From Ostreococcus lucimarinus (lineage: Eukaryota): 64,000 bases of DNA. Where the stretch lies: NCBI GenBank assembly GCA_000092065.1, contig CP000582.1; one strand, 5' to 3'. The notes beneath the pieces are model-generated. The model worked only from the letters and a program-made list of their open reading frames with translations. It was not told the DNA's origin and searched no databases. A program made the translations under genes and the position numbers. This document shows positions 13,601 to 63,177 of the stretch, piece by piece (the stretch's first letter is position 1; every line of letters begins with the position of its first letter).

Positions 13601-16600
13601 TAGTGCCTCTCTTTGCGCGGTTGCGCTGCTGCAGGCTTGCGGCGCTCGTGCGCGCGTTTCCGGCGCCCACGTGCGTGCAAACGACATCGTCCACGAGGAC
13701 GCTTCGGCCGCGCCCGCAGTCTGTGGATCGTGCGTGCGCGCCACCGTGCAATCTTCCGCGCAGGAACGCAGCGAGCCATTGGTGCTGAGTGTCGCGAGCG
13801 CCCCGCACACCGCGCCAGCCCGAGCGTTGCGATCGATCGCCGCCGGGGCGTCGATCGCCGGGGCGCTGTGCGTTGAGCGGCTGCTTCCGGCGTTCGGTCG
13901 CCGGACGCCCGCCGCGTCGCGCGACGGCGCGGCGACGACCACGGCGTCGCCGGCACCGAAAGTCTCGAGCGTGTTCGTGACTGGCGGTCTGGGCGCGTTG
14001 GGTCAGACTTCGGCGGCGTGGTACGCGCATCGAGGCGTTCGCCACGCCTACTTGACTGGTCGCCGCGGGCGCGGAGAGTCCCTTCTGCTGCGATGGTCGT
14101 CGCGCGGCGGTACCGACGTGAGCGCATTGCACGTGCTTCGCGTCGACGCGTGTGCGACCGACGAGGCGTCGTACGGCGGTGCGCGCGCGCACGCGCGCGT
14201 GCGCGCACACGGCGTGCTGCACGCGGGCGGCGTGCTACGCGACTCTTTGACTGCTCGCCAATCCGCGTCGGCCCATCGATACGTGTGGTCGTCCAAAGTA
14301 GTGTCCGCGCACGCATTGCTCCGCCAGTGCGTCGGCGTCGAGCGCGGCGCGCGTCACATCGCGCTGTTCTCGTCGGTGGCGGCGCTGCTGGGGAGTCCAG
14401 GGCAATGCAACTACAGCGCGGCCAACGCCGCGCTGGACGCGCGAGCCGCACACGAGTGGTGCCGCGGGTACGCGGTGCAATCCGTGCAGTGGGGCGCGTG
14501 GGACGGCGCGGGAATGGCGCTGACAAACGCGTCTGTACTCAGGAACGCGCGCACGACAGGCATCGGCGTGCTCGATCCGCAAGCCGGGCTCGGGGCCGTA
14601 CACGTCGCGCTTCAGGGCGCATCAGTGACGGGTCGCTGGCGGGCAATCCAAGGCGTCCTGGCCGTCGTCCCGTTCCAGTGGTCCGTGCTCGCGCGCGCGC
14701 AGCGCTCGCGCGCGCTGATTGCGGAGTACCGCGCGGAGTCGGCGCGGTCGAGCGCTCCAGTCGCCGTCCATCCGGGCGCCGAGGAAGACGCGGCGCGCGA
14801 TGTGTCAGATGAGAGCGTGCGGCAGATCGTGGCCTCCGCCGTGACGCGCGCGCTCGGCAGAGACGTGTCGGTGGACGCGTCGCTCATGGAAGAGGGCCTA
14901 GACTCGCTCGCGGCGGTCGAGCTCGGAGGGGCGTTACAAAAGGAAACGGGCGTGAACATGCCGGCCACGCTGGCATTTGACTACCCGACGATCACCGCGA
15001 TATCTGGGTACCTGAAGGGTGCGATGCTGGCGCGATCGCGTGCGCGCCAATCGAGCGGCGCGGCGTCCAGCGCCGCTCGCACGCGCGCCGCGAGCGGCGC
15101 GGTCGCGCATTCGCGCGACTCGATGCCAGGTATTGCATCCAACGCGCGCGAAATCTTGGGTCTTGCGCCCGTTGTTATGGCCATCAGACGGAGCGTGCGA
15201 CGACTCGACGCGGATGATCGAGAGCCAAAGCCTGCTCGACATGGCGGCTCGGCGTTGTTTTCATCGTTCGTGAGGTGCGTCATGGCAGAGCGAGCCTCTG
15301 AAGATCGCTTCGACACGCCATCGTTGGGCAGGCAGCCGAGCGCGACAGCGCGCGTGGTCTCCTTGACGAAAGCCAGAGATTTCACTACACAAGCTCTCGA
15401 CAGCATGCCGAAATGCAACGAGATTGAGCTGAGCGTCGTCAGCGCTGTGTCGAGTAAGGCATCAGGCGCGCACGATGCCGTGCGTGTGAACAACATGCGA
15501 CATGCGTGCGGCGAAGTGTGTGATCCACAAAGCTCAAAATCGCACGAGTTCGTCGCTCGGCGTCTTGTGCAGTTTGGGTACTTCATCGAGCGCAGCTTGT
15601 TTGACGGGGAGCAGTTCTCCGTAACGGCGCACGAGGCGCGGTTGATGGACCCGCAGCAGCGCGTGCTCCTGGAGAACGCGCTCGCCGCGACGAGTGCGAC
15701 GCCGCACAGCGCGCCGAAGCCAGCCACAGCCGTGTCCGTCGGCGCTTGGACGTCTCAGTACGCAGACATGTGCCGCGTGTACGAGCCAACGCCGGGGCCG
15801 TACTCTGGCGTTGCTTCCGCCTTGAGCGTGCTGTGCGGTCGCGTATCGTACACGTTTGGTATGCGTGGCCCGTCCGTGTGTGTCGACACCGCGTGCTCCT
15901 CCTCGCTCGTGGCCGCGCATGTTGCGAGCTCTCACTTGCGCGATGGATCGTGCGAGGACGCCCTCGTCGCCGGCGTGAGCGTGAACGTCGGCATCGGCAC
16001 CTTCCTCGTGGCCACCGCCGCGAGCATGCTATCGTTCGATGGTCGGTGCAAAACCTTGGATGCCAGCGCCGACGGTTACGCCAAGGGCGAGTGCTGCGTG
16101 GTCCTGCGCGTGTCGGTGGACGGGGCGAGCGCTGGAGCGCCCAAAGCGCCCGATCTTCCAAACGCCGAGTCTCCCTCTCTCGCTCTTCTCGAACAGACCG
16201 GTGTGAACCAGGATGGACGGTCGAGCTCGCTCACCGCACCAAACGGGCCGTCGCAGCAGGCACTCGTGGCCGATGCGCTTCTCCGCTCGGGGCTGCACGG
16301 CGACGCGCTCGGCAGGCTGGAGATGCACGGCACGGGTACTTCGCTGGGAGATCCGATAGAGGTCGGCGCCGCGCTTGAGGTTCTCGCGCCGCCGACGCGC
16401 GCGGACCGGGCGCCGTCCAGGGGCCCCGCGCTCACGCTTGAGGGCGTGAAGCCACGCGCTGGCCACTGCGAACCAGGGGCTGGCGCGGTTGGGTTGCTGT
16501 TTGCGATGGCAAACTTGACGGAGCGAGCCGTCGCGTCCCTCGTCCACCTGCGCCAGCTCAACCCTCACGTCGAGGCCGCGACGCGCCGAAACGCACCGTC

Positions 16601-19600
16601 GCCGCATGCGCGCGCGCCGGTGCTCGCGCGACAAGGCATGCCGCGACCGGATGACGGCGCGTCTGAGGCTGGAGCAGCGGACGCTGCTCGAGCGCGCGTG
16701 CGGCGATCCGGCGTGAGCGGCTTCGCGTTCCAGGGCACAAACGCGCACGCAATCATGGCCCGGGGACCCGGACAGGCGACTGCGCCCGGGTACACGGGAA
16801 GCACGCACACGGCGGCGCGTGCGTGGGAGCGTCAGCGCCACTGGTGCGCGCCAGAACGGCACTGCCTCATCGAGTCCGTGCGCGCTCTGCATCCTCGCGA
16901 GGGAGACTCGAGCGCGTTGGCGCGGTCGTGCGTGCGCCTGTGTCGGTCCGCGTCGCTCGCTGGCATGCTTGATCACGCCGTCGGGCTCCGGACGCTGCTA
17001 CCAGGCACAGCGCACGTCGAGATATGTCGAGCCATGGCGGGCGCGCTGGCAGACCAGCCGCTCGCCGACATCTCGCTGTCGCACGTATCTTTTGCAGCGC
17101 CCCTCGAGCTTCGAGCGCCGACGACCGACGTGCTGTGCGACGTCACGCCGCAAGGCGTGGCCCGCGTGGGCGTGCGCGTGTCGTCGTCCTCTGCCGCCGC
17201 GCCGTTCCTCGCGGGCGCGCTCAGCCGCAGAAGCGCCTCAAGAATTACTGCGTCTCCGGCGCACCTCTCGCGAGGACCGGCGATGCCCGCGCTGGACGTG
17301 CAGCCTTGTGTTCACGGCGCGAGCTGGCTGCGCTCGTCGCAGCGACGAGGCCCGGGCGCGGAGCACCGCGTGTACGGCGACATACGCGCGCGTCAGATGT
17401 CCACGCTGTCGGCTGCGGCGTATCACTCGCCGCCCGCAGTGCTCGATGCCGCGCTGCACGCGCTCAGCGCGTGCGCGCCGCCGCCGGGTAGCGATGCGAC
17501 AGAAGAGAGCCCGCACGTCCCGGCCACGATCGGCGGCGTCCGCACGCGAGGCGGGCACTCGGACATATACCGCGCCCGGTTCGCGCTCGCGACGGCTCCG
17601 CCTGAGCGCGGGGAGCGGAACGCGTCCACGCGCAGATCTCGTCACCACCTGTGGGACTGGTCGAGTCTTTCGGCGGCGCATCGAGGGTGCGTGGTGCACG
17701 CGCTGGAGTCTCGACGACTCGGTGGCGCCGCGGTCGTGCGCTCGCGAGCACAACAGCGCTCGAGGGCACCGCCGCCGCGTCGCGCGGCCGCGCCGCGTGT
17801 GCTTTATGGAGTCGGGCAACAGCGCGCGTGCGGCGCGGCGGATGGCCAGGGCGCGCGTCGACGCTCAACCCTCAACTCGCAGTGCTTTGTGGACGACGCG
17901 TCGCACCGCCGCGAGCTGATGGAGACCCACGCGTCACCATCGATCGCGCAAGGCAGCACGCGAAGCAGCACGCGCGCCTCTCTTTGCGCGGTTGCGCTGC
18001 TGCAGGCTTGCGGCGCTCGTGCGCGCGTTTCCGGCGCCCACGTGCGTGCAAACGACATCGTCCACGAGGACGCTTCGGCCGCGCCCGCAGTCTGTGGATC
18101 GTGCGTGCGCGCCACCGTGCAGTCTTCCGCGCAGGAACGCAGCGAGCCATTGGTGCTGAGTGTCGCGAGCGCCCCGCACACCGCGCCAGCCCGAGCGTTG
18201 CGATCGATCGCCGCCGGGGCGTCGATCGCCGGGGCGCTGTGCGTTGAGCGTCTGCTTCCGACGTTCGGTCGCCGGACGCCCGCCGCGTCGCGCGACGGCG
18301 CGGCGACGACCACGGCGTCGCCGGCACCGAAAGTCTCGAGCGTGTTCGTGACTGGCGGTCTGGGCGCGTTGGGTCAGACTTCGGCGGCGTGGTACGCGCA
18401 TCGAGGCGTTCGCCACGCCTACTTGACTGGTCGCCGCGGGCGCGGAGAGTCCCTTCTGCTGCGATGGTCGTCGCGCGGCGGTACCGACGTGAGCGCATTG
18501 CACGTGCTTCGCGTCGACGCGTGTGCGACCGACGAGGCGTCGTACGGCGGTGCGCGCGCGCACGCGCGCGTGCGCGCACACGGCGTGCTGCACGCGGGCG
18601 GCGTGCTACGCGACTCTTTGACTGCTCGCCAATCCGCGTCGGCCCATCGATACGTGTGGTCGTCCAAAGTAGTGTCCGCGCACGCATTGCTCCGCCAGTG
18701 CGTCGGCGTCGAGCGCGGCGCGCGTCACATCGCGCTGTTCTCGTCGGTGGCGGCGCTGCTGGGGAGTCCAGGGCAATGCAACTACAGCGCGGCCAACGCC
18801 GCGCTGGACGCGCGAGCCGCACACGAGTGGTGCCGCGGGTACGCGGTGCAATCCGTGCAGTGGGGCGCGTGGGACGGCGCGGGAATGGCGCTGACAAACG
18901 CGTCTGTACTCAGGAACGCGCGCACGACAGGCATCGGCGTGCTCGATCCGCAAGCCGGGCTCGGGGCCGTACACGTCGCGCTTCAGGGCGCATCAGTGAC
19001 GGGTCGCTGGCGGGCAATCCAAGGCGTCCTGGCCGTCGTCCCGTTCCAGTGGTCCGTGCTCGCGCGCGCGCAGCGCTCGCGCGCGCTGATTGCGGAGTAC
19101 CGCGCGGAGTCGGCGCGGTCGAGCGCTCCAGTCGCCGTCCATCCGGGCGCCGAGGAAGACGCGGCGCGCGATGTGTCAGATGAGAGCGTGCGGCAGATCG
19201 TGGCCTCCGCCGTGACGCGCGCGCTCGGCAGAGACGTGTCGGTGGACGCGTCGCTCATGGAAGAGGGCCTAGACTCGCTCGCGGCGGTCGAGCTCGGAGG
19301 GGCGTTACAAAAGGAAACGGGCGTGAACATGCCGGCCACGCTGGCATTTGACTACCCGACGATCACCGCGATATCTGGGTACCTGAAGGGTGCGATGCTG
19401 GCGCGATCGCGTGCGCGCCAATCGAGCGGCGCGGCGTCCAGCGCCGCTCGCACGCGCGCCGCGAGCGGCGCGGTCGCGCATTCGCGACGTACAACCATTA
19501 CTCAGCTCCCTCGTCTACGTCTATCATACGTTCCGCATGAAGTCAGCCGACGAACGACTCTTGGCATTAGCGGTCAATATTCTCACGAGCTTAGACACTT

Positions 19601-22600
19601 TAGCTCTGCGGGACCTTCGACCAGTAACTTTGAGGGAGTCCTCTTTGTTCGCATTCATAACTCCACCAAGCCCTTACCCGTGCATCCATATTTCATTGGC
19701 AACTTTTTGCGTTGTGACGAACTCGAGTTCGGCTTGTTTGGCGCACCGCACAGCGAATGGACTACTCTGGACGCGCGGCAGATTCTCTTGATTGAGAGTG
19801 TACACACTATCCAGCTGAACAACAGTTCAGACGTTTCATTGCGCACTCTAGAGACGACGGCTGTTCTTGTTGGAGCACAAGCGGTAGATTCAACTGACGA
19901 GCATAGCGTTGAGATACAGTACAACGCCTACTCTGGCGTTGCTTCCGCCTTGAGCGTGCTGTGCGGTCGCGTATCGTACACGTTTGGTATGCGTGGCCCG
20001 TCCGTGTGTGTCGACACCGCGTGCTCCTCCTCGCTCGTGGCCGCGCATGTTGCGAGCTCTCACTTGCGCGATGGATCGTGCGAGGACGCCCTCGTCGCCG
20101 GCGTGAGCGTGAACGTCGGCATCGGCACCTTCCTCGTGGCCACCGCCGCGAGCATGCTATCGTTCGATGGTCGGTGCAAAACCTTGGATGCCAGCGCCGA
20201 CGGTTACGCCAAGGGCGAGTGCTGCGTGGTCCTGCGCGTGTCGGTGGACGGGGCGAGCGCTGGAGCGCCCAAAGCGCCCGATCTTCCAAACGCCGAGTCT
20301 CCCTCTCTCGCTCTTCTCGAACAGACCGGTGTGAACCAGGATGGACGGTCGAGCTCGCTCACCGCACCAAACGGGCCGTCGCAGCAGGCACTCGTGGCCG
20401 ATGCGCTTCTCCGCTCGGGGCTGCACGGCGACGCGCTCGGCAGGCTGGAGATGCACGGCACGGGTACTTCGCTGGGAGATCCGATAGAGGTCGGCGCCGC
20501 GCTTGAGGTTCTCGCGCCGCCGACGCGCGCGGACCGGGCGCCGTCCAGGGGCCCCGCGCTCACGCTTGAGGGCGTGAAGCCACGCGCTGGCCACTGCGAA
20601 CCAGGGGCTGGCGCGGTTGGGTTGCTGTTTGCGATGGCAAACTTGACGGAGCGAGCCGTCGCGTCCCTCGTCCACCTGCGCCAGCTCAACCCTCACGTCG
20701 AGGCCGCGACGCGCCGAAACGCACCGTCGCCGCATGCGCGCGCGCCGGTGCTCGCGCGACAAGGCATGCCGCGACCGGATGACGGCGCGTCTGAGGCTGG
20801 AGCAGCGGACGCTGCTCGAGCGCGCGTGCGGCGATCCGGCGTGAGCGGCTTCGCGTTCCAGGGCACAAACGCGCACGCAATCATGGCCCGGGGACCCGGA
20901 CAGGCGACTGCGCCCGGGTACACGGGAAGCACGCACACGGCGGCGCGTGCGTGGGAGCGTCAGCGCCACTGGTGCGCGCCAGAACGGCACTGCCTCATCG
21001 AGTCCGTGCGCGCTCTTCATCCTCGCGAGGGAGACTCGAGCGCGTTGGCGCGGTCGTGCGTGCGCCTGTGTCGGTCCGCGTCGCTCGCTGGCATGCTTGA
21101 TCACGCCATCGGGCTCCGGACGCTACTACCAGGCACAGCGCACGTCGAGATATGTCGAGCCATGGCGGGCGCGCTGGCAGACCAGCCGCTCGCCGACATC
21201 TCGCTGTCGCACGTATCTTTTGCAGCGCCCCTCGAGCTTCGAGCGCCGACGACCGACGTGCTGTGCGACGTCACGCCGCAAGGCGTGGCCCGCGTGGGCG
21301 TGCGCGTGTCGTCGTCCTCTGCCGCCGCGCCGTTCCTCGCGGGCGCGCTCAGCCGCAGAAGCGCCTCAAGAATTACTGCGTCTCCGGCGCACCTCTCGCG
21401 AGGACCGGCGATGCCCGCGCTGGACGTGCAGCCTTGTGTTCACGGCGCCATCAGACGGAGCGTGCGACGACTCGACGCGGATGATCGAGAGCCAAAGCCT
21501 GCTCGACATGGCGGCTCGGCGTTGTTTTCATCGTTCGTGAGGTGCGTCATGGCAGAGCGAGCCTCTGAAGATCGCTTCGACACGCCATCGTTGGGCAGGC
21601 AGCCGAGCGCGACAGCGCGCGTGGTCTCCTTGACGAAAGCCAGAGATTTCACTACACAAGCTCTCGACAGCATGCCGAAATGCAACGAGATTGAGCTGAG
21701 CGTCGTCAGCGCTGTGTCGAGTAAGGCATCAGGCGCGCACGATGCTGTGCGTGTGAACAACATGCGACATGCGTGCGGCGAAGTGTGTGATCCACAAAGC
21801 TCAAAATCGCACGAGTTCGTCGCTCGGCATCTTGTGCAGTTTGGGTACTTCATCGAGCGCAGCTTGTTTGACGGGGAGCAGTTCTCCGTAACGGCGCACG
21901 AGGCGCGGTTGATGGACCCGCAGCAGCGCGTGCTCCTGGAGAACGCGCTCGCCGCGACGAGCGCGACGCCGCACAGCGCGCCGAAGCCAGCCACAGCCGT
22001 GTCCGTCGGCGCTTGGACGTCTCAGTACGCAGACATGTGCCGCGTGTACGAGCCAACGCCGGGGCCGTACTCTGGCGTTGCTTCCGCCTTGAGCGTGCTG
22101 TGCGGTCGCGTATCGTACACGTTTGGTATGCGTGGCCCGTCCGTGTGTGTCGACACCGCGTGCTCCTCCTCGCTCGTGGCCGCGCATGTTGCGAGCTCTC
22201 ACTTGCGCGATGGATCGTGCGAGGACGCCCTCGTCGCCGGCGTGAGCGTGAACGTCGGCATCGGCACCTTCCTCGTGGCCACCGCCGCGAGCATGCTATC
22301 GTTCGATGGTCGGTGCAAAACCTTGGATGCCAGCGCCGACGGTTACGCCAAGGGCGAGTGCTGCGTGGTCCTGCGCGTGTCGGTGGACGGGGCGAGCGCT
22401 GGAGCGCCCAAAGCGCCCGATCTTCCAAACGCCGAGTCTCCCTCTCTCGCTCTTCTCGAACAGACCGGTGTGAACCAGGATGGACGGTCGAGCTCGCTCA
22501 CCGCACCAAACGGGCCGTCGCAGCAGGCACTCGTGGCCGATGCGCTTCTCCGCTCGGGGCTGCACGGCGACGCGCTCGGCAGGCTGGAGATGCACGGCAC

Positions 22601-24623
22601 AGGTACTTCGCTGGGAGATCCGATAGAGGTCGGCGCCGCGCTTGAGGTTCTCGCGCCGCCGACGCGCGCGGACCGGGCGCCGTCCAGGCCCCCCGCGCTC
22701 ACGCTTGAGGGCGTGAAGCCACGCGCTGGCCACTGCGAACCAGGGGCTGGCGCGGTTGGGTTGCTGTTTGCGATGGCAAACTTGACGGAGCGAGCCGTCG
22801 CGTCCCTCGTCCACCTGCGCCAGCTCAACCCTCACGTCGAGGCCGCGACGCGCCGAAACGCACCGTCGCCGCATGCGCGCGCGCCGGTGCTCGCGCGACA
22901 AGGCATGCCGCGACCGGATGACGGCGCGTCTGAGGCTGGAGCAGCGGACGCTGCTCGAGCGCGCGTGCGGCGATCCGGCGTGAGCGGCTTCGCGTTCCAG
23001 GGCACAAACGCGCACGCAATCATGGCCCGGGGACCCGGACAGGCGACTGCGCCCGGGTACACGGGAAGCACGCACACGGCGGCGCGTGCGTGGGAGCGTC
23101 AGCGCCACTGGTGCGCGCCAGAACGGCACTGCCTCATCGAGTCCGTGCGCGCTCTTCATCCTCGCGAGGGAGACTCGAGCGCGTTGGCGCGGTCGTGCGT
23201 GCGCCTGTGTCGGTCCGCGTCGCTCGCTGGCATGCTTGATCACGCCATCGGGCTCCGGACGCTACTACCAGGCACAGCGCACGTCGAGATATGTCGAGCC
23301 ATGGCGGGCGCGCTGGCAGACCAGCCGCTCGCCGACATCTCGCTGTCGCACGTATCTTTTGCAGCGCCCCTCGAGCTTCGAGCGCCGACGACCGACGTGC
23401 TGTGCGACGTCACGCCGCAAGGCGTGGCCCGCGTGGGCGTGCGCGTGTCGTCGTCCTCTGCCGCCGCGCCGTTCCTCGCGGGCGCGCTCAGCCGCAGAAG
23501 CGCCTCAAGAATTACTGCGTCTCCGGCGCACCTCTCGCGAGGACCGGCGATGCCCGCGCTGGACGTGCAGCCTTGTGTTCACGGCGCGAGCTGGCTGCGC
23601 TCGTCGCAGCGACGAGGCCCGGGCGCGGAGCACCGCGTGTACGGCGACATACGCGCGCGTCAGATGTCCACGCTGTCGGCTGCGGCGTATCACTCGCCGC
23701 CCGCAGTGCTCGATGCCGCGCTGCACGCGCTCAGCGCGTGCGCGCCGCCGCCGGGTAGCGATGCGACAGAAGAGAGCCCGCACGTCCCGGCCACGATCGG
23801 CGGCGTCCGCACGCGAGGCGGGCACTCGGACATGTACCGCGCCCGGTTCGCGCTCGCGACGGCTCCGCCTGAGCGCGGGGAGCGGAACGCGTCCACGCGC
23901 AGATCTCGTCACCACCTGTGGGACTGGTCGAGTCTTTCGGCGGCGCATCGAGGGTGCGTGGTGCACGCGCTGGAGTCTCGACGACTCGGTGGCCTCACGA
24001 CGAATTCATTTTATCATAGCTTTACGTCTACGCAGGCATATAAGTTGGCTCATATTCCACGGCCAGACATCCTATCGCAGTCTTTCACTTCAATGAAGAC
24101 TATAAATGCTGTCGACAAAGCTAGCAGCACATTTACAGAACGCAGTAGTGATGCGATGGAAATTGTTAACGCCGTGCAACGCGAGATTTTGGAAATTTTA
24201 TCAACATTAACGACCAGTCCTGTAAGTTTAGATGATACACTTGCGAGCCACGGATTGGACTCACTGGGCATTGCATATTTTTTTATTCAAGTTGGCAAAC
24301 GGTTCAATGTTGAAGTGACTGTTGACAGTCTTGGCACGAACACCACAGTCAGTAGTATAGTGCATCAGATATCACAGATGCTTAGTGCAAGGGTGATTTT
24401 CCTACACACCAAGGACCTGGTGCGCGAGCGAAAAGCCGACAGCTCCTCAAGAAGAGGAAGGAGCACTGCGATCACATCGATGGTGTCTGCATACCGTCGA
24501 CACTTGCAGTCAACTGAATTCGAGCCCAAAGCCTGTTTTGCAAGAGGCGTACTTGCTTGCGCAATATTTACTATATTTATCATTGCGTACGGATATCACG
24601 CACACAGATTCGACATGTTTTAG
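10647..24623 (+). CDS. Type I modular polyketide synthase, AT-less (trans-AT-like); domain order KS-DH-[KR-ACP-KS-DH]x2-KS-DH-ACP with a C-terminal hydrophobic tail; 4658 aa, single intronless ORF
   Basis: KS motifs: EAxxMDPQQRLLLE-like CMDPQQRLLLL and RLMDPQQRVLLE; active-site DTACSSSLVALH / DTACSSSLVAAH; HGTGTPLGDPIE / HGTGTSLGDPIE; FQGTNAH. DH motifs: LLDHRVADMHLMPATGHLE and LDHAVGLRTLLPGTAHVE plus DAALHAL. KR motifs: VFVTGGLGALG (NADPH site) and SPGQCNYSAANAALD. ACP motifs: EEGLDSLAAVEL and terminal ASHGLDSLGIAYF. No GHSxG acyltransferase motif and no ER anywhere. The true start Met may be internal (for example MSNLDTRAMSNPYF). Confidence 0.85.
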   Translation: MTYDIVLQRFTPTSQGPTTPYPCAIKANSKWKLVRLKRLALERFRCPMLTRHKPESVQNGTPRNESRMSNLDTRAMSNPYFQVGRWDCTDELEGCQFSAPHTSVSVPNFEEIQTLHYTCVYEVAITCTQRHDMHNDEFAHVLSSVIELANRVDLTRLRQHHSIDNFATHVLTFRFILDLLRQTYQEYIKGSIENNSFEHVEFTFNNCMDGTHGMATCFKPNKKHSHLCYILDISQAERSCNGRTDDTKCVHDKITMNDRVLSAAKIPDNAVNKQFSASILNDVYGFDSSLFHISQSETLCMDPQQRLLLLAAADLYLSNTRVCQHDDSFCVHVGVSWNDFEEIRRKYSADFFSTYDSTGTSISVASGRIAYYFDFKGCAVTIDTACSSSLVALHQSMYAAGSLRESSALVCGINLILTTTMTHRFQLAGMMSSEHRCMTFDARADGYVRSEACNIVLLHFNGFTKTHRNVLRHDVHMSCVVNQDGTSTGLTAPNGTAQRNLMNELLSDVYNPSKHVGAKIHAHGTGTPLGDPIEVFAINSALSFSSLCRLYVSEKSMRGHTEPASGLCSTILAFVSGAQCKLHGQPHLQQLNNHILTSVDESIFQRSLHSSFPLTSMASVTTVSSFAFQGTNAMASLTYIDKCSIRVIRNTSGLRSLVKLETESPVRLPYTFSCLSIVNGKMIQLTSMIHDKTLKRLLDHRVADMHLMPATGHLELERELTKCALVRNEPYLLTKIAFMLPLKLDESNQLITEMNTHGRLRVGCGSGISNYWCSTARLQIPVGRAWCTDRTFYLTSKLVSRRFKGATATIAGTTPILDSQNVVNPCIQDASLQCSAYVLNTSAFASDTTYMDCVSLLKLPTTIQDVIVVNQTGKILVRSTHVDMLQKTQHVTESNNSVTSNSSSNNKTQTWIHRLLCKVSTVRMKAGLRTRTCLELARLLYHARQQRVLISNMQNLREVGSLHAPELMPIMREMGRKSMQDINSASASLCAVALLQACGARARVSGAHVRANDIVHEDASAAPAVCGSCVRATVQSSAQERSEPLVLSVASAPHTAPARALRSIAAGASIAGALCVERLLPAFGRRTPAASRDGAATTTASPAPKVSSVFVTGGLGALGQTSAAWYAHRGVRHAYLTGRRGRGESLLLRWSSRGGTDVSALHVLRVDACATDEASYGGARAHARVRAHGVLHAGGVLRDSLTARQSASAHRYVWSSKVVSAHALLRQCVGVERGARHIALFSSVAALLGSPGQCNYSAANAALDARAAHEWCRGYAVQSVQWGAWDGAGMALTNASVLRNARTTGIGVLDPQAGLGAVHVALQGASVTGRWRAIQGVLAVVPFQWSVLARAQRSRALIAEYRAESARSSAPVAVHPGAEEDAARDVSDESVRQIVASAVTRALGRDVSVDASLMEEGLDSLAAVELGGALQKETGVNMPATLAFDYPTITAISGYLKGAMLARSRARQSSGAASSAARTRAASGAVAHSRDSMPGIASNAREILGLAPVVMAIRRSVRRLDADDREPKPARHGGSALFSSFVRCVMAERASEDRFDTPSLGRQPSATARVVSLTKARDFTTQALDSMPKCNEIELSVVSAVSSKASGAHDAVRVNNMRHACGEVCDPQSSKSHEFVARRLVQFGYFIERSLFDGEQFSVTAHEARLMDPQQRVLLENALAATSATPHSAPKPATAVSVGAWTSQYADMCRVYEPTPGPYSGVASALSVLCGRVSYTFGMRGPSVCVDTACSSSLVAAHVASSHLRDGSCEDALVAGVSVNVGIGTFLVATAASMLSFDGRCKTLDASADGYAKGECCVVLRVSVDGASAGAPKAPDLPNAESPSLALLEQTGVNQDGRSSSLTAPNGPSQQALVADALLRSGLHGDALGRLEMHGTGTSLGDPIEVGAALEVLAPPTRADRAPSRGPALTLEGVKPRAGHCEPGAGAVGLLFAMANLTERAVASLVHLRQLNPHVEAATRRNAPSPHARAPVLARQGMPRPDDGASEAGAADAARARVRRSGVSGFAFQGTNAHAIMARGPGQATAPGYTGSTHTAARAWERQRHWCAPERHCLIESVRALHPREGDSSALARSCVRLCRSASLAGMLDHAVGLRTLLPGTAHVEICRAMAGALADQPLADISLSHVSFAAPLELRAPTTDVLCDVTPQGVARVGVRVSSSSAAAPFLAGALSRRSASRITASPAHLSRGPAMPALDVQPCVHGASWLRSSQRRGPGAEHRVYGDIRARQMSTLSAAAYHSPPAVLDAALHALSACAPPPGSDATEESPHVPATIGGVRTRGGHSDIYRARFALATAPPERGERNASTRRSRHHLWDWSSLSAAHRGCVVHALESRRLGGAAVVRSRAQQRSRAPPPRRAAAPRVLYGVGQQRACGAADGQGARRRSTLNSQCFVDDASHRRELMETHASPSIAQGSTRSSTRASLCAVALLQACGARARVSGAHVRANDIVHEDASAAPAVCGSCVRATVQSSAQERSEPLVLSVASAPHTAPARALRSIAAGASIAGALCVERLLPTFGRRTPAASRDGAATTTASPAPKVSSVFVTGGLGALGQTSAAWYAHRGVRHAYLTGRRGRGESLLLRWSSRGGTDVSALHVLRVDACATDEASYGGARAHARVRAHGVLHAGGVLRDSLTARQSASAHRYVWSSKVVSAHALLRQCVGVERGARHIALFSSVAALLGSPGQCNYSAANAALDARAAHEWCRGYAVQSVQWGAWDGAGMALTNASVLRNARTTGIGVLDPQAGLGAVHVALQGASVTGRWRAIQGVLAVVPFQWSVLARAQRSRALIAEYRAESARSSAPVAVHPGAEEDAARDVSDESVRQIVASAVTRALGRDVSVDASLMEEGLDSLAAVELGGALQKETGVNMPATLAFDYPTITAISGYLKGAMLARSRARQSSGAASSAARTRAASGAVAHSRRTTITQLPRLRLSYVPHEVSRRTTLGISGQYSHELRHFSSAGPSTSNFEGVLFVRIHNSTKPLPVHPYFIGNFLRCDELEFGLFGAPHSEWTTLDARQILLIESVHTIQLNNSSDVSLRTLETTAVLVGAQAVDSTDEHSVEIQYNAYSGVASALSVLCGRVSYTFGMRGPSVCVDTACSSSLVAAHVASSHLRDGSCEDALVAGVSVNVGIGTFLVATAASMLSFDGRCKTLDASADGYAKGECCVVLRVSVDGASAGAPKAPDLPNAESPSLALLEQTGVNQDGRSSSLTAPNGPSQQALVADALLRSGLHGDALGRLEMHGTGTSLGDPIEVGAALEVLAPPTRADRAPSRGPALTLEGVKPRAGHCEPGAGAVGLLFAMANLTERAVASLVHLRQLNPHVEAATRRNAPSPHARAPVLARQGMPRPDDGASEAGAADAARARVRRSGVSGFAFQGTNAHAIMARGPGQATAPGYTGSTHTAARAWERQRHWCAPERHCLIESVRALHPREGDSSALARSCVRLCRSASLAGMLDHAIGLRTLLPGTAHVEICRAMAGALADQPLADISLSHVSFAAPLELRAPTTDVLCDVTPQGVARVGVRVSSSSAAAPFLAGALSRRSASRITASPAHLSRGPAMPALDVQPCVHGAIRRSVRRLDADDREPKPARHGGSALFSSFVRCVMAERASEDRFDTPSLGRQPSATARVVSLTKARDFTTQALDSMPKCNEIELSVVSAVSSKASGAHDAVRVNNMRHACGEVCDPQSSKSHEFVARHLVQFGYFIERSLFDGEQFSVTAHEARLMDPQQRVLLENALAATSATPHSAPKPATAVSVGAWTSQYADMCRVYEPTPGPYSGVASALSVLCGRVSYTFGMRGPSVCVDTACSSSLVAAHVASSHLRDGSCEDALVAGVSVNVGIGTFLVATAASMLSFDGRCKTLDASADGYAKGECCVVLRVSVDGASAGAPKAPDLPNAESPSLALLEQTGVNQDGRSSSLTAPNGPSQQALVADALLRSGLHGDALGRLEMHGTGTSLGDPIEVGAALEVLAPPTRADRAPSRPPALTLEGVKPRAGHCEPGAGAVGLLFAMANLTERAVASLVHLRQLNPHVEAATRRNAPSPHARAPVLARQGMPRPDDGASEAGAADAARARVRRSGVSGFAFQGTNAHAIMARGPGQATAPGYTGSTHTAARAWERQRHWCAPERHCLIESVRALHPREGDSSALARSCVRLCRSASLAGMLDHAIGLRTLLPGTAHVEICRAMAGALADQPLADISLSHVSFAAPLELRAPTTDVLCDVTPQGVARVGVRVSSSSAAAPFLAGALSRRSASRITASPAHLSRGPAMPALDVQPCVHGASWLRSSQRRGPGAEHRVYGDIRARQMSTLSAAAYHSPPAVLDAALHALSACAPPPGSDATEESPHVPATIGGVRTRGGHSDMYRARFALATAPPERGERNASTRRSRHHLWDWSSLSAAHRGCVVHALESRRLGGLTTNSFYHSFTSTQAYKLAHIPRPDILSQSFTSMKTINAVDKASSTFTERSSDAMEIVNAVQREILEILSTLTTSPVSLDDTLASHGLDSLGIAYFFIQVGKRFNVEVTVDSLGTNTTVSSIVHQISQMLSARVIFLHTKDLVRERKADSSSRRGRSTAITSMVSAYRRHLQSTEFEPKACFARGVLACAIFTIFIIAYGYHAHRFDMF
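13605..23993. repeat. 10.4-kb block of near-identical tandem segmental duplications inside the PKS ORF. Segments: a 13605-15115 = 17976-19486 (KR-ACP). b2 15182-15800 = 21449-22067 (linker plus KS N-terminus). c 15801-17320 = 19929-21448 = 22068-23587 (KS core plus DH N-half). d 17321-17975, partial copy 23588-23993. Order is a-b-c-d-a-b'-c-b2-c-d'.
   Basis: The offsets 4371, 4128 and 6267 nt were verified at several junctions. Copies differ by only a few SNPs (for example caatcttcc/cagtcttcc, gagcggctg/gagcgtctg, RRLVQ/RHLVQ, SRGP/SRPP). The block is about 70% GC against about 47% in the flanks. Confidence 0.85.
19487..19928 (+). repeat. Divergent low-GC paralogue (b') of the linker / KS-N-terminus segment, replacing the 685-nt GC-rich b segment in module copy 2
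   Basis: It encodes FGLFGAPHSEWTTLDARQILLIESVHTIQ...TAVLVGAQAVDSTDEHSVEIQYNAYSGVAS. This aligns with FSVTAHEARLMDPQQRVLLENALAATSA...TAVSVGAWTSQYADMCRVYEPTPGPYSGVAS of the other copies. Nucleotide composition resembles the host flanks. Confidence 0.7.
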
Positions 24624-57509: not shown

Positions 57510-59216
57510 GTGCAACTTGCGTTTCGTTCGACAACGTTCGCCCTACGTGGCATTAGCCTGGTTCGCGCGCCCTTCGTAGCACTAGCCTGGCTCGCGCGCG
57601 CGCGTTCATTCAACCTCGTCCGCGGCGAGCAAAAGCGGATGCCCACTCTAAAACAAGTATCGGTCTTTTCACGCGGTGGGCTTGTTCTCGTGCACGAGTG
57701 TTTCACGAAAGAGGTCGTTCTTCTGACCGAACTTTCAGAATGCGCGCATACCTTGAAAAGCGATTCAGATCGATCTATTGAGTCAAGAATTGCAGCCTAC
57801 GATTCTCAGAAGAGCAAAGTTATTTGGCTAAGTGACGCTGTCACTGGTTTGACGTTTATACTCTCCTTCGAAGAGGCTTTAGAGAAACACGAGGCAGACG
57901 ATTTACTCAGGACAAGCAAAGACGCATTTGCTGAATACTACGAACATGATCGATTCGACTACAGTGAATTCCTACCCGCTCTCCAAGCACGGATTCAGCA
58001 ATTGGAAAGGTCTAATGAGCACTGCGAGCTTGGTGCTGCTAGTGAACGGTCAGGCGTGGATAACTCTGTTTCCGACAGTAAACTGCCTTCACGCGATTTT
58101 GGACGTACAAAGAGGCAGCATCACTACCATGACCCATCCGTGCCCAGATCTCGCCATTCAGAAAGGCTCGATTCACTCGATTTCTCAGAGCCGTCACAGG
58201 TTGCTCAGCCGCCGATTTTTCCAGAGCCTTCAAGCACTCAATCAAAACATACTCAAGCTATTAAGCACGAGGGGGGGAAACGTCTGGGCTTGAGCTGGTG
58301 CCGTGATCTTGTTAGTTTCCGTGAAACACACATTAGTGAGGAATCTTTGTTACCTCTCACAGCGTCAATCAAACACAAATTGACTCAAAAAAATGTGACG
58401 AGCGATATAGCTGATTTACTGGTGACAGAAGTTGCACAGAAACTCGTAGGGAAAAAAGTTTCTACATTCCAGTCACTAGCAAGCATAGTCTACCGTTCAC
58501 TTGAGGAGTCAATCATTCGTATACTGAGTTCTGCGAAGAAAATTGACCTATTGACTGAGGTCGGAAGCGCTCGTAAGAGTAGAAGACCTTTCGTGATTGC
58601 GTTTGTTGGCGTGAACGGTGTCGGTAAAAGTACGAGTCTATCGAAGGTAGTACATTGGCTTAGTCAGCAAAATTTCTCAGTGATGGTTGCTGCATGTGAC
58701 ACGTTTCGTGCTGGTGCAGTAGAGCAACTACGGACACACTGTCAACGTCTTGACTGTGCGCTTTTTGAGAGAGGCTACGAAAGAGATCCATCAGTTATCG
58801 CTCAACAAGCTATTCAGCAAGCCACGCGACAAGGTATTGATGTCGTCATGATAGATACTGCAGGGCGCATGCAAGACAACGAACCATTAATGCGAGCACT
58901 TGCAAAACTCTTGAGTGTAAACCTGCCTGATTTGACACTGTTTGTAGGCGAAGCACTGGTCGGAAATGATGGCGTGAGCCAAATTTTGCAGTTTGAGCAT
59001 AGATTACAAGCATTGATGCAAACGGAGAAGAAATGTGTCATAGATGGCATCTTCCTTTCAAAATTCGACACCATCGACAATAAAGTTGGCACTGCTTTAT
59101 CGTTAGTGTATGCGTCTTCGATTCCCATCATGTTTGTTGGTACTGGGCAGATGTATAAGGATGTTCGTACTTTTCAGGCTGAAAATATTGCAACCGTACT
59201 TCTTGCTGATTCATGA
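57510..59216 (+). CDS. SRPRA: Signal recognition particle receptor alpha subunit (SR-alpha/FtsY family); probable start MPTLKQVSVFSRGGLVLV at about 57640
   Basis: SRX-like N-terminus. NG domain: FVGVNGVGKSTSLSKV (G1), DTAGRMQD (G3), SKFDTIDNKVG (G4), GTGQ. Confidence 0.8.
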   Translation: MQLAFRSTTFALRGISLVRAPFVALAWLARARSFNLVRGEQKRMPTLKQVSVFSRGGLVLVHECFTKEVVLLTELSECAHTLKSDSDRSIESRIAAYDSQKSKVIWLSDAVTGLTFILSFEEALEKHEADDLLRTSKDAFAEYYEHDRFDYSEFLPALQARIQQLERSNEHCELGAASERSGVDNSVSDSKLPSRDFGRTKRQHHYHDPSVPRSRHSERLDSLDFSEPSQVAQPPIFPEPSSTQSKHTQAIKHEGGKRLGLSWCRDLVSFRETHISEESLLPLTASIKHKLTQKNVTSDIADLLVTEVAQKLVGKKVSTFQSLASIVYRSLEESIIRILSSAKKIDLLTEVGSARKSRRPFVIAFVGVNGVGKSTSLSKVVHWLSQQNFSVMVAACDTFRAGAVEQLRTHCQRLDCALFERGYERDPSVIAQQAIQQATRQGIDVVMIDTAGRMQDNEPLMRALAKLLSVNLPDLTLFVGEALVGNDGVSQILQFEHRLQALMQTEKKCVIDGIFLSKFDTIDNKVGTALSLVYASSIPIMFVGTGQMYKDVRTFQAENIATVLLADS

Positions 59217-59308
59217 AGGGTGTATTTAGAGTAGAAGGGCTTTTTATTCAATTGAAGCTAACTCCTAGCGCAGTCTTTTGAAATATATCTGTGTCTCTGT
59301 TTCCTCTT

Positions 59309-60414
59309 CTAGTCCGATAGTACCTGTGGAAACGCTTCATGATAGTTTTTTGAACATGGCAATGGATTCACCTTGTCTATCAAGCCATATTTCACTGCTT
59401 CGGTAGGGTCGAAGTAAAGAGGGCGATTTATATCGCTTTCAACGGTGGCGATGTCCTTGCCGGTCGTCTTCGCTAATATCTCCAGCTGTAGGGAAAGATA
59501 ACATGATTCCTAGGTCAACTAGTTAAAACAGTTACATACCATTTGTCTTTTAGTATTTCGCATCTCCTGGCGTTGAATTTCCAACTCAGATGCCTAATCG
59601 AAGTTAAAATGGCCACAACGCTCAGTATGCAAATGCAAATGTTCACCTGTCCACGAAAAGCGCTCAATGGTTGCTTCAACATAATACTGGCAGAAGGCAA
59701 CGCCGCGCGATTACCCTGTGCCATATTTATCATAGGCTGAGAACGAACAAATTCAAGCGTACCCTACTACCTGCAGCCAACAACATCGCAGCCTCACCCC
59801 AAGCTGTTCCTACTGCTATGGTGTGTACAGGAGGAGATACATACTGGATTGTATCATATATAGCAAACGCCTCAGTATCATACCCATATTTTTGCCCATC
59901 CTTGGTTCGTATTAGTTGCAGTCCATAACATCGATGATATTCGAACCTTCGAAGACCCTGTCGAGTTAATGTACAGTTGTATTGGCTTTTTCTTATCTTC
60001 ATACTGCAAGTAGAGCAGTTCGGCAAGAATCAACTCTGTCACTGAAGGTACAAGGGTCATGCCCTGGTTTGAGAGCTGAGCTGATGACGTTATTGTTTGA
60101 GCATAGTATTACCAAGTAAACGATCCTCTCTTTGAAAATGAAGGATGGAAGATCAGGAGGAGACTGAGTGGACGCATCCCCTTGCAAGCTCGGTATGACC
60201 TGTTGTAAAAATTGAAGTTTGTTCTTTATCGTGGCGGTGAAAGAAAGCCGACCTGCGTAATAGCATGTCGCCCGCGGTCGTTCATAATGATGCGGCGACT
60301 AGTCTTCTGCAAAACTTCTGGAAATGGCTCGCCAGGGCGGAACTTGCTCGCCCGTGAAGCTCGCACGCGAACAGAGCTAGAGCTCGCCGTCACTGTAGGG
60401 GTGAGACGAAACAT
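59309..60414 (-). CDS. ClpP-family protease subunit lacking the catalytic Ser and His (ClpR-type inactive paralogue), with S/R-rich N-terminal presequence; at least 6 exons
   Basis: Spliced minus-strand reading: presequence [24 protein letters not shown]... | [16 protein letters not shown] | [37 protein letters not shown] | [46 protein letters not shown] | [23 protein letters not shown] | [18 protein letters not shown] | [38 protein letters not shown] | VLSD*. It is collinear with E. coli ClpP. The GQAASMG serine corresponds to GTAWGEAAM (no Ser). RVMIHQP corresponds to ASIMLKQP (His replaced by Lys). Introns 46-53 nt, GT..AG. Confidence 0.65.
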
Positions 60415-60936
60415 GTAACTTGTAACTCGTTACGATGAGTTCTGTAAGTCTGACCCACTATTCAAACGTGGGTAACTTCGACTCGGCGTGCAACTGGATC
60501 AGTAATCTACGCCGACGCGTGTTTTAGGCGGACCCCACGGGACGAAAACCTGCGACCAGCAGCGAACTGGCGAACCCTTCAGGGTTGAGCGCGGTTCGGC
60601 AACGCAACCCATCCGGATAAAGCCCTTTGGAGAATGAAATAAGAGAAAATATAAGGATGAAAGTATGAGATCGGTGTTGGTGTCGGCATTGAAAATAGCC
60701 TCATATATTAATATAGACAGCATCTATCATTCACTTTTCTTTCATCGCCTTGCTTCGCCTCGCAGCCGCGGTCAAACGCTGTCGCGTCGCGTGTGAATTA
60801 CCCCGACAGGCCGCACTGAAACGTGTATCCTATATCGTGCCGACAGGAGCGTACTGCGTCTAAGCTTAGGGACAGTGTTGCGAGCGCGCATTACGGCAAT
60901 CACACGTAGCGTTGCTCGTCAAAATAGCAGCACGCG

Positions 60937-63177
60937 ATGTACACGTCTTCAACTCGACTGGCACTGGCTCAAAACCTCAACCAGACTCGAGTCGCGCGCC
61001 CGCGATGTGCTGGGGGGCACGGACGAAACGCCGACAGTCTTCGCCCCGTGATTACGCGAAAATTGAGCGCACGTGCGCGTAATGGGCGCTCAGGCACACG
61101 GTTCGTGCCAAATCGTGGTTCTGAGCAGGATATCTTATCTGAACTTGAAGAAGCGCAAGAAGGAGGAATTGCTGGCTACGGCGTCATCTCGTCCAAACCT
61201 ACGACACCCCTTTTGGATACCGTGCAGTTTCCGAGCCATTTGAAGGGTTTAAACATGGATCAACTCAAGCAAGTCGCGAAAGAACTACGTGCAGACCTAA
61301 TCTACAACGTATCTCAGACAGGAGGGCATCTTGGTTCGAGCCTCGGAGTTATTGAGCTCACCGTCGCACTCAATTACGTATTCGACCAACCGAACGACAA
61401 AATCATATGGGACGTGGGGCATCAAGCTTACCCTCACAAAATTTTGACGGGAAGGAGGGACCAAATGAACACCATGAGACAAACAGGCGGGTTATCACCT
61501 TTCACGAAGAGAAGCGAAAGTCCTTATGACTGCTTTGGGGCGGGACACAGTAGTACGTCCATTTCGGCAGGTCTTGGAATGGCTGTCGCTCGGGATATGC
61601 AAGGCGGCGATAATCATGTCATCAGCATAATCGGAGACGGGGCAATCACGGGGGGGATGGCGTATGAAGCTATGAACAATGCTGGATTTCTGGACACGAA
61701 CATGATCATCATCTTAAATGATAACCAGCAAGTGTCGCTTCCTACGCAATACAACAGTATGAATCAAGATCCAGTGGGTGCGCTTTCGTCGACATTCGCT
61801 CGTCTTCAGTCGTCGCGCCCTCTACGCGAGTTGCGCGAGTCTGCCAAGGCGATTACCAAACAGATGCCAACCCCTGTGCAAGAGGTCACCGCAAAAGTTG
61901 ACGAGTATGCGCGTGGTATGATTAGTGGATCTGGCTCGACTCTATTTGAAGAGCTCGGACTATATTACATCGGAACTGTTGATGGGCATAATTTGGAGGA
62001 TTTGGTCGCCATTCTGCAAGAAGTAAAAGAGACAAAGAGCGTTGGTCCCGTGTTGATTCACATCGTGACCGAGAAGGGCCGAGGCTACTCTTATGCCGAA
62101 GACGCTCAAGACAAGTACCACGGTGTATCCAAATTCGATCTCGCTTCCGGTGAACAAAGCAAATCAACAGATACAATCCCCACTTACACGAAGGTGTTCG
62201 CCGATGCCTTGATTGGAGAAGCCATGGCTGATGAAAAGGTTGTGGCCGTGCACGCTGCCATGGGCGGGGGAACGGGATTAAACCATTTCGAGAAATATTT
62301 CGCCGATAGAACGTACGACGTCGGCATTGCGGAGCAACATGCCGTGACTTTCGCTGCGGGTCTTGCATGTGAGGGATTGAAACCCATGTGTACGATTTAT
62401 TCAACATTTTTGCAACGTGGCTGGGATCAAGTTGTTCACGACGTAGCGCTGCAGAAACTTCCGGTGAGGTTTGCGATGGACCGTGCTGGCTTGGTTGGCG
62501 CGGATGGACCAACTCATGCTGGTGCGTACGATGTGACGTTCATGGCGTGCCTTCCCGATATGGTCGTTATGGCGCCGATGGACGAGGCAGAGCTGTGTCA
62601 TATGGTTGCAACATCTTTAGCTATTGACGATCGTCCCTCCTGTTTCCGCTATCCTCGGGGTGCGGGCGTTGGGGTCAACATGGAAAATGAGAGCGTCAAA
62701 GTGCTCAATCCAGGATACAAGGGTATGGTGTTAGACATTGGGAAAGGCCGAGTTCTACGCGAAGGAACCGATGTCGTTCTGTTGGGTTATGGTACTCCAA
62801 CGAATAACTGTTTGCTGGCTGCCCAAATGTTGCAAGAGTTCGGCGTCAGCGCCACCGTGGCGGATGCTCGATTCTGCAAACCTCTGGACGTCGAACTCAT
62901 TCGTCGCTTGGCAAAATCACACCCAGTTTTCATAACGGTAGAGGAAGGTTCCATAGGCGGCTTTGCGTCTCACGTGTTGCACTTCCTAGCGACTGACGGA
63001 CTGCTCGACGGCGGCTTGAAGGTTCGACCAATGGTACTTCCCGATCGTCCAATTGATCACGGTTCGTATGCATTCCAGCTTAACGAGGCTGGACTTAGCG
63101 TTTCGCACATCGCATCTACGGCGCTTTCGCTTGTCGGGAAGCAAAATGAGTCTCTCGAGGTTTTAGCAAGAGTCTAG
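60937..63177 (+). CDS. DXS: 1-deoxy-D-xylulose-5-phosphate synthase (MEP pathway), with about 60-aa N-terminal targeting presequence
   Basis: [20 protein letters not shown]; [16 protein letters not shown]; thiamine-diphosphate motif [18 protein letters not shown]...NDN; [17 protein letters not shown]; transketolase C-terminal domain. The S/T/R-rich N-terminus [14 protein letters not shown]...[13 protein letters not shown] reads as a transit-peptide-like region. Confidence 0.85.

Follow-up and report, generated by a model that had tools for sequence, protein, structure and literature searches.

Does a nuclear gene for a ClpP-like protein that has lost the catalytic residues of the protease still encode a working part of the Clp machinery, and which part would that be? 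The question is raised by positions 59309-60414 of a 64,000-nucleotide stretch of Ostreococcus lucimarinus DNA (contig CP000582.1 of assembly GCA_000092065.1), referred to below as the window. Our reading is that the locus is a nuclear ClpR4 orthologue, spliced and non-catalytic, whose product has a structural role as one of the subunits of the chloroplast Clp protease, and we give this reading as a whole a probability of about 0.93. The gene is already known. Its 251-residue product is, residue for residue, XP_001416434.1 / ABO94727.1 of O. lucimarinus CCE9901, annotated as 'chloroplast Clp protease, subunit of ClpP peptidase complex', and RefSeq has exactly this gene model for an ordinary ClpR4 orthologue. 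It carries little weight as a discovery, since the presence of ClpR subunits in the chloroplast Clp protease is textbook knowledge. The organism is a photosynthetic prasinophyte, and the window comes from its 'big outlier chromosome', chromosome 2; the window's GC content of 44-49% fits the low-GC BOC1 region.

The gene runs on the minus strand from an ATG at 60414 to a TAG stop codon at 59311-59309. When eight blocks of that strand are joined, an in-frame ORF of 756 nt and 251 codons results, interrupted in the DNA by seven GT-AG introns of 46-54 nt, all in phase 0. Exon 1 (60253-60414) encodes residues 1-54, which are the whole presequence and nothing else. It is followed by intron 1 (60200-60252, 53 nt), exon 2 (60113-60199, residues 55-83), intron 2 (60064-60112, 49 nt) and exon 3 (59947-60063, residues 84-122), the last three residues of which, SSK, are the first three of a ClpR-type insertion. 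Intron 3 (59901-59946, 46 nt) lies within that insertion, and exon 4 (59763-59900, residues 123-168) carries its remainder, DGQKY, together with the motif GTAWGEAAM. After intron 4 (59716-59762, 47 nt) comes exon 5 (59647-59715, residues 169-191) with the motif MLKQP, then intron 5 (59594-59646, 53 nt), exon 6 (59540-59593, residues 192-209), intron 6 (59486-59539, 54 nt), exon 7 (59372-59485, residues 210-247), intron 7 (59324-59371, 48 nt) and finally exon 8 (59309-59323), which encodes VLSD (residues 248-251) and the stop codon. The introns were placed from RNA-derived contigs, exons 2, 3, 6 and 8 from the spliced ORF and these contigs, exon 1 from the spliced ORF and alignment, and exons 4, 5 and 7 from alignment. 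An exhaustive search of GT/GC-AG exon chains for the 251-residue protein returned the eight-exon model and no other.

This model is confirmed at the transcript level, because ten RNA-derived contigs (L001-L010) splice at its junctions. Eight of them (L003-L010), representing seven sequencing runs and one JGI sample and found by look-up of the 251-residue product, carry the 756-nt ORF uninterrupted, with all seven introns gone and exons 100% identical to those of the window. Fully spliced ClpR4 mRNA was listed in 93 index blocks, and eight places were examined. The other two contigs, L001 and L002, correspond to a 230-residue variant (P0001) from two Logan assemblies; they are 100% identical to the window and spliced at the junctions of the model for introns 1-4, 6 and 7, and they keep intron 5, which causes a frameshift. 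Further assembled isoforms keep intron 4 (P0138 and P0139) or intron 7 (P0140), the latter in frame with the addition of 16 residues. The RNA contigs begin at 60550-60653, which implies a 5' UTR of 140-240 nt; at its longest, in L003, it would span 60415-60653, and the others start at 60550-60570. At their other end the contigs continue through into the convergent neighbour and cover both genes. That neighbour, on the plus strand at 57510-59216, encodes an SRP54-type (SRP-receptor-like) GTPase, and its stop codon is 92 nt from that of ClpR4. The divergent neighbour, a single-exon ORF on the plus strand at 60937-63177, encodes a plastid-targeted DXS and is separated from the furthest ClpR4 transcript end by a gap of at most 283 nt. 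A scan for bacterial promoters and terminators between 59100 and 61000, irrelevant for a eukaryotic nuclear gene, gave no more matches than expected from shuffled sequence.

A sequence-only reading of the same DNA had already found an intron-split nuclear gene of the ClpP family at 59309-60414, with the start, stop and strand right. Its count of six exons gives way to eight exons and seven introns, on the evidence of both the unique GT/GC-AG model and the RNA-derived contigs. Of the junctions that it proposed, 59372/59324 alone was exact; those at 59926/59880, 59735/59690, 59620/59567 and 59510/59455 were each misplaced by 20-30 nt, '60060/60070' is no junction, and intron 1 (60252-60200) had been overlooked.

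The spliced product belongs to the ClpP/ClpR fold family (Pfam PF00574, CLP_protease; peptidase family S14), which it matches over its full length at 173 bits (E 7.7e-51; cutoff 20.2), with residues 71-250 covering profile positions 9-180 of 182. When it is aligned with ClpP of E. coli and Thermus, all three columns of the Ser-His-Asp triad are occupied by other residues: Gly157 (codon 59798-59796) stands at the position of the nucleophilic Ser, Lys182 (59676-59674) at that of the catalytic His and Pro231 (59422-59420) at that of the catalytic Asp. The E. coli sequence aligned as expected, with 36% identity. Alignment along the whole ClpP fold had been claimed by the sequence-only reading, as had the loss of Ser from GTAWGEAAM (residues 153-161) and of His from MLKQP (residues 180-184), and these claims hold; the change of Asp to Pro had gone unmentioned. 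Since Gly, Lys and Pro take the place of Ser, His and Asp, the protein is incapable of hydrolysing peptide bonds and is not an active ClpP.

The sequence-only reading had itself named an exon structure that restores Ser and His as a result that would overturn it. Such a structure would turn the gene into one for an active plastid or mitochondrial ClpP, and introns of this region have weak splice signals, which leaves some room for it. It was looked for in the ten RNA contigs, in all of which the codons for Gly157, Lys182 and Pro231 are exonic, lying in exons 4, 5 and 7. One GT/GC-AG model alone yields the protein, and the intron-retaining isoforms, which shorten or lengthen the product, leave these three residues unchanged in every case seen. 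We therefore consider a hidden active ClpP to be extremely improbable and return to the non-catalytic protein.

The profile models for ClpP and its relatives separate clearly on this protein. With a cutoff of 308.6 bits, the ClpP equivalog TIGR00493 reached only 159.8. Among the NCBIfam models the highest score, 251.5 bits, came from NF009204/PRK12552, which we take to be the model of cyanobacterial ClpR; this is just under its cutoff of 263 and far above all ClpP models. The ClpR1/R3/R4-type subgroup is defined by an insertion, relative to ClpP, of approximately 8-10 residues after an INSxG motif. The Ostreococcus protein has such an insertion, the eight residues SSKDGQKY (residues 120-127) after INSTG, and neither E. 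coli nor Thermus ClpP has a counterpart of it. Among the best 120 database matches, 118 carry the eight-residue insertion, and the triad columns hold Gly in 120 of 120, Lys in 117 of 120 and Pro in 116 of 117. When 1.84 billion cluster representatives were searched, nearly all of the closest 150 had Gly at the Ser site and an insertion of 8-10 residues; within this set the first ClpP with the Ser-His-Asp triad and without the insertion appeared at rank 28 (187 bits), and the next only at 143 bits or less.

The absence of all three catalytic residues might also be expected of a functionless copy of an active ClpP in the course of decay, and several assembled transcripts, in which an intron is retained, would give truncated proteins. 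However, the ORF is intact, fully spliced mRNA is present in many independent samples, and the same substitutions have been kept from prasinophytes to angiosperms. Over the mature region, identity to O. tauri RCC4221 is 90.9%, with dN = 0.056, even though synonymous sites between the two species are saturated, leaving NG86 undefined and dN alone to be reported. The gene is under strong purifying selection, and we attach almost no credence to a pseudogene. A ClpP fold that lacks the triad residues and is conserved under selection is that of a ClpR.

Among the ClpR subunits the protein is probably the orthologue of ClpR4, as judged by similarity ranking and the names of the sources. Its named land-plant matches are entered as ClpR4 or 'CLP protease R subunit 4', with 59-65% identity, E of about 1e-80 and about 290 bits, and every named land-plant protein among the best 120 matches is ClpR4, the one exception being a Datura entry with an odd label. 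Of the solved structures, chain K of the Chlamydomonas chloroplast Clp core matches best (7eko_K; 153 bits, E 1e-43), followed by 7eko_N with 147 bits. Bacterial and mitochondrial ClpP chains score at most 138 bits, and the human mitochondrial CLPP chains about 128-130, which places them below the chloroplast subunit. Mitochondrial ClpP, the other identity that the sequence-only reading had named as fatal to it, is ruled out by this ranking and by the absent triad, and the assignment to a ClpR-type subunit of the plastid Clp core, which it had proposed, agrees with both the named relatives and the structure. A named land-plant ClpR4 (P0085) also selects 7eko_K, with 185.6 bits vs 152 for the next 7eko chain, and its alignment runs on into the C-terminal tail of the chain. 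Chain K of 7EKO is thus probably CrClpR4, to judge from these sequence matches.

The small difference between 7eko_K and 7eko_N, which is a different Chlamydomonas ClpR chain, would fit orthology to ClpR1 or ClpR3, the other paralogues that bear the insertion. We think this unlikely, given that the named land-plant matches are ClpR4, that the land-plant ClpR4 prefers 7eko_K by a clear margin, and that the WGE motif, like Gly, Lys and Pro at the triad positions, is shared specifically within the ClpR4 match group. Names among the next-nearest representatives were confined to Nelumbo ClpR4, Vitrella, Cardiosporidium and Rhododendron, with no ClpR1 or ClpR3 label.

Residues 1-54 form an N-terminal extension that precedes VIPSLQGD, the conserved start of the mature protein at residue 55, and the presequence claimed by the sequence-only reading is therefore present. 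The extension contains 22% Ser plus Thr, 20% Arg plus Lys and 6% Asp plus Glu, and is not conserved among orthologues. It is likely to be a chloroplast transit peptide. Cleavage would probably occur near Gln54/Val55; the deposited chain K of the Chlamydomonas structure starts, by alignment, within a few residues of the equivalent of Val55, which is consistent with that site.

From the presence of ClpR together with DXS, the sequence-only reading had gone on to suggest a plastid that might be a relic one. Organisms with reduced plastids also retain ClpR and DXS, and chromerid and apicomplexan ClpR are found among the more distant relatives of the protein. The ClpR4 and DXS products, however, are exactly those of two RefSeq entries of O. 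lucimarinus CCE9901, the latter being XP_001416190.1, 'DXS plastid precursor', and the literature describes O. lucimarinus as a photosynthetic picoalga. A relic, non-photosynthetic plastid is the least probable of all the alternatives considered here, and the suggestion is to be withdrawn. The case has value for calibration: a dead protease paralogue was recognised from raw sequence, and most of the splice sites and the meaning for the organism were misjudged.

The introns deserve separate consideration. In the low-GC half of chromosome 2 (BOC1), introns measure 40-65 bp, are AT-richer, have weak 5' splice sites and lack the ACTGAC branch motif (PMC2367439; PMC2483917). Elsewhere in Ostreococcus they average approximately 188 bp, and 87% have a strong ACTGAC branch site (PMC2367439; PMC2483917; PMC3491373). 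All seven introns of ClpR4 belong to the BOC1 class in size, GC content, donors and branch motif. Their GC content is 35-41% compared to 49% in the coding sequence, their donors vary (GTCGGC, GTAATA, GTTCGA, GTACGC, GTGAAC, GTATGT and GTGAAT), and ACTGAC occurs in none of the seven. The sequence-only reading had presented the gene as documenting a short-intron structure; this is correct for the gene, but the trait belongs to the low-GC half of chromosome 2 and not to the genome as a whole.

In O. tauri RCC4221 (L011, CAID01000002.2) introns interrupt the gene at the same seven positions, and their sequences are unrelated to those of O. lucimarinus (approximately 58-61% identity in global alignment). 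The ClpR4 gene of the liverwort Marchantia paleacea (L012) has six introns, and four of them coincide with introns 1, 3, 6 and 7 of Ostreococcus when scored by alignment column and phase. For one Marchantia exon the end, ...ACT GAG CTG / GTATGA, was seen by inspection of the sequence. By a rough estimate, chance alone would produce approximately 0.07 coincidences, compared to the four observed. These four shared positions indicate that at least four of the 'atypical' BOC1 introns are ancestral to green plants. An orthologue with 82% identity on a 1.6-Mb metagenomic contig of 61-66% GC (L013) is intronless.

The mature ClpR4 encoded by another O. tauri assembly (GCA_002158475.1; P0037, L014) and that of RCC4221 have only 77.7% identity, lower than the 90.9% between RCC4221 and O. 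lucimarinus. The gene there has other neighbours and the same exon sizes (87/117/138/69). In a neighbour-joining tree, Ostreococcus-like ClpR4 sequences fall into two clades, with one O. tauri sequence in each. This tree matches the trans-specific pattern of MT+ and MT- gametologs that has been published for the region (PMC8557840; PMC5498103). The gene lies in the low-GC, recombination-suppressed candidate mating-type region and appears to exist in two ancient allelic classes. One speculation, which we consider improbable, is that chloroplast Clp cores differ in function between the two mating types, as opposed to passive hitch-hiking of a housekeeping gene; if true, the differing cores could bear on plastid-nuclear compatibility or on the uniparental inheritance of plastids. 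The findings could also feed studies of why the outlier chromosome of Mamiellales keeps so many introns, to which the ancestral intron positions in a recombination-suppressed region, the intronless high-GC orthologue and the mating-type-like allelic divergence are all relevant. Elsewhere in the window, the ORF at 10647-24623 encodes a modular type I polyketide synthase; inside it the GC content jumps from 45% to 65-72%, and repeats of 1.5-2.5 kb are 99.6-99.8% identical.

What the protein does can be proposed from its relatives. In the chloroplast Clp core the R-ring is composed of three ClpP1 and ClpR1-4, the ClpR subunits are non-catalytic, and ClpR4 is required for normal plastid biogenesis in Arabidopsis (PMC6508832; PMC5447895; bioRxiv 10.1101/2021.07.26.453741). 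In O. lucimarinus, removal of the seven short phase-0 introns from the minus-strand transcript would give the 251-residue precursor, which would be imported into the plastid and lose its transit peptide near Gln54/Val55, leaving a mature protein of approximately 197 residues with the full ClpP fold and without catalysis. By analogy with Arabidopsis and Chlamydomonas, this protein would fill one position of a heptameric R-ring of three plastid-encoded ClpP1 and one each of ClpR1-4, which would stack onto the catalytic P-ring. ClpR4 would thus have a role in structure and assembly, giving shape to the chamber and to the surface on which chaperones dock, and would not act as an enzyme; what the ClpR subunits in general contribute is probably structure, assembly and stability, and not active sites. 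Import, the cleavage site, ring position and stoichiometry are all inferred.

Comparison with known systems places the protein closest to the ClpR4 of plants. Canonical ClpP, as in E. coli (1TYF) and human mitochondria (CLPP), shares its fold over the whole length; the Ostreococcus protein differs in having Gly-Lys-Pro for Ser-His-Asp and the eight-residue insertion, and it fails the ClpP equivalog model. Cyanobacterial ClpR, as in the ClpP3/R core of Synechococcus, is likewise a ClpP paralogue without catalysis, and it assembles together with active subunits (PMC6508832); the Ostreococcus protein, by contrast, is eukaryotic, nuclear-encoded, interrupted by introns and made with a presequence. 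Chain K of the Chlamydomonas structure, a subunit of the ring of ClpP1 and ClpR1-4, resembles it in having the insertion and, where the dead Ser site lies, the FGE/WGE motif, but extends approximately 50 residues past the fold. The long C-terminus of Chlamydomonas ClpR4 is reported to reach the P-ring. A contact of this type cannot be the same in Ostreococcus, because the protein has no C-terminal extension; it ends three residues past the fold, and Mamiellales ClpR4 proteins in general end 0-5 residues past it. In land-plant ClpR4 (Arabidopsis CLPR4, At4g17040; P0085, P0088, P0154) the C-terminal tail is approximately 20-23 residues and the presequence about 85-130 residues, compared to 54 in Ostreococcus, and in Marchantia the introns are 112-1462 nt long rather than 46-54 nt. 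With these land-plant proteins the Ostreococcus subunit shares 59-65% identity over the mature protein, Gly, Lys and Pro at the triad positions, the AWGEAA motif, the eight-residue insertion after INSTG and an N-terminal extension of the transit type.

The introns of the ClpR4 gene are old. Four of its seven short introns of the type seen in BOC1, the low-GC region of chromosome 2, are located on the minus strand at 60252-60200, 59946-59901, 59539-59486 and 59371-59324, and match introns of the ClpR4 gene of Marchantia paleacea exactly in both alignment column and phase. All seven O. lucimarinus introns are phase 0, and O. tauri ClpR4 has introns at all seven positions. The positions held in common with Marchantia and O. 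tauri show that these "atypical" chromosome-2 introns were not recently gained.

Exon 1 of ClpR4 (60253-60414) encodes exactly the presequence (amino acids 1-54), and the first codon of exon 2 is the start of conserved mature ClpR4. The same division is seen in Marchantia, in which exon 1 is likewise the presequence and the mature protein begins with exon 2. Intron 3 interrupts an 8-residue insertion specific to ClpR, SSK/DGQKY, the two parts of which are encoded on the minus strand at 59947-59955 and 59886-59900.

An intronless ClpR4 orthologue with 82% identity is present as one unbroken ORF (1501-2169) on L013, a 1.63-Mb metagenomic contig (JGI 3300046170) from a genome with a GC content of 61-66% and a Micromonas-like composition. 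Its gene neighbours differ. In this lineage all of the introns have been lost.

Assembled transcripts include both the fully spliced O. lucimarinus ClpR4 mRNA and intron-retaining forms. Retention of intron 5 (59594-59646) in two RNA-derived contigs, L001 and L002, causes a frameshift and yields a 230-aa product. Intron 4 (59716-59762) is retained in the isoforms encoding proteins P0138 and P0139, and intron 7 (59324-59371) in that encoding P0140, where it is read in frame and adds 16 aa.

Genes around ClpR4 are very tightly packed. Only 92 nt (59217-59308) lie between its stop codon and that of a convergent gene for an SRP54-type GTPase, and the existence of RNA contigs spanning both genes suggests that their 3′ ends overlap. 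On the other side, no more than 283 nt (60654-60936) separate the start codon of the divergent DXS gene from the most distant ClpR4 transcript end, a spacing that suggests one bidirectional promoter shared by the genes for both plastid proteins. O. tauri retains the SRP54-type neighbour, whereas upstream of ClpR4 it has an Nsp1_C gene rather than DXS.

Two forms of ClpR4 are found in O. tauri. The mature regions encoded in RCC4221 (chromosome 2) and in a second assembly (GCA_002158475.1, KZ155840.1) are only 77.7% identical, and the flanking genes differ, while RCC4221 and O. lucimarinus share 90.9% identity in this region. In a neighbor-joining tree the Ostreococcus sequences form two clades. 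The chromosomal region carries an ancient divergence of MT+ and MT- gametologs (PMC8557840), and the sequence divergence and two-clade split fit this published pattern.

Elsewhere in the window, a modular type I polyketide synthase with 4 KS, 2 KR, 3 ACP and 3 DH domains is the product of a single 4658-aa ORF on the plus strand (10647-24623). Within the ORF, at ~13.6 kb, GC rises from 45% to 65-72% (GC3 0.73-0.80), returning to 44% beyond 24.6 kb. The GC-rich part contains internal repeats of 1.5-2.5 kb with 99.6-99.8% identity, e.g., 15180-17726 and 21447-23993. Within this generally low-GC region, the modules may have undergone GC-biased gene conversion; alternatively, the pattern may be an assembly artefact.

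At the C-terminus (59309-59323 in the window), ClpR4 of Mamiellales has 0-5 residues beyond the ClpP fold, compared to a tail of ~20-23 aa in land plants and ~50 aa in the Chlamydomonas chain. In the cryo-EM structure the Chlamydomonas tail extends to the P-ring, the catalytic ring of the core. Since Ostreococcus ClpR4 lacks this long tail, this contact between the rings has to be absent or replaced.
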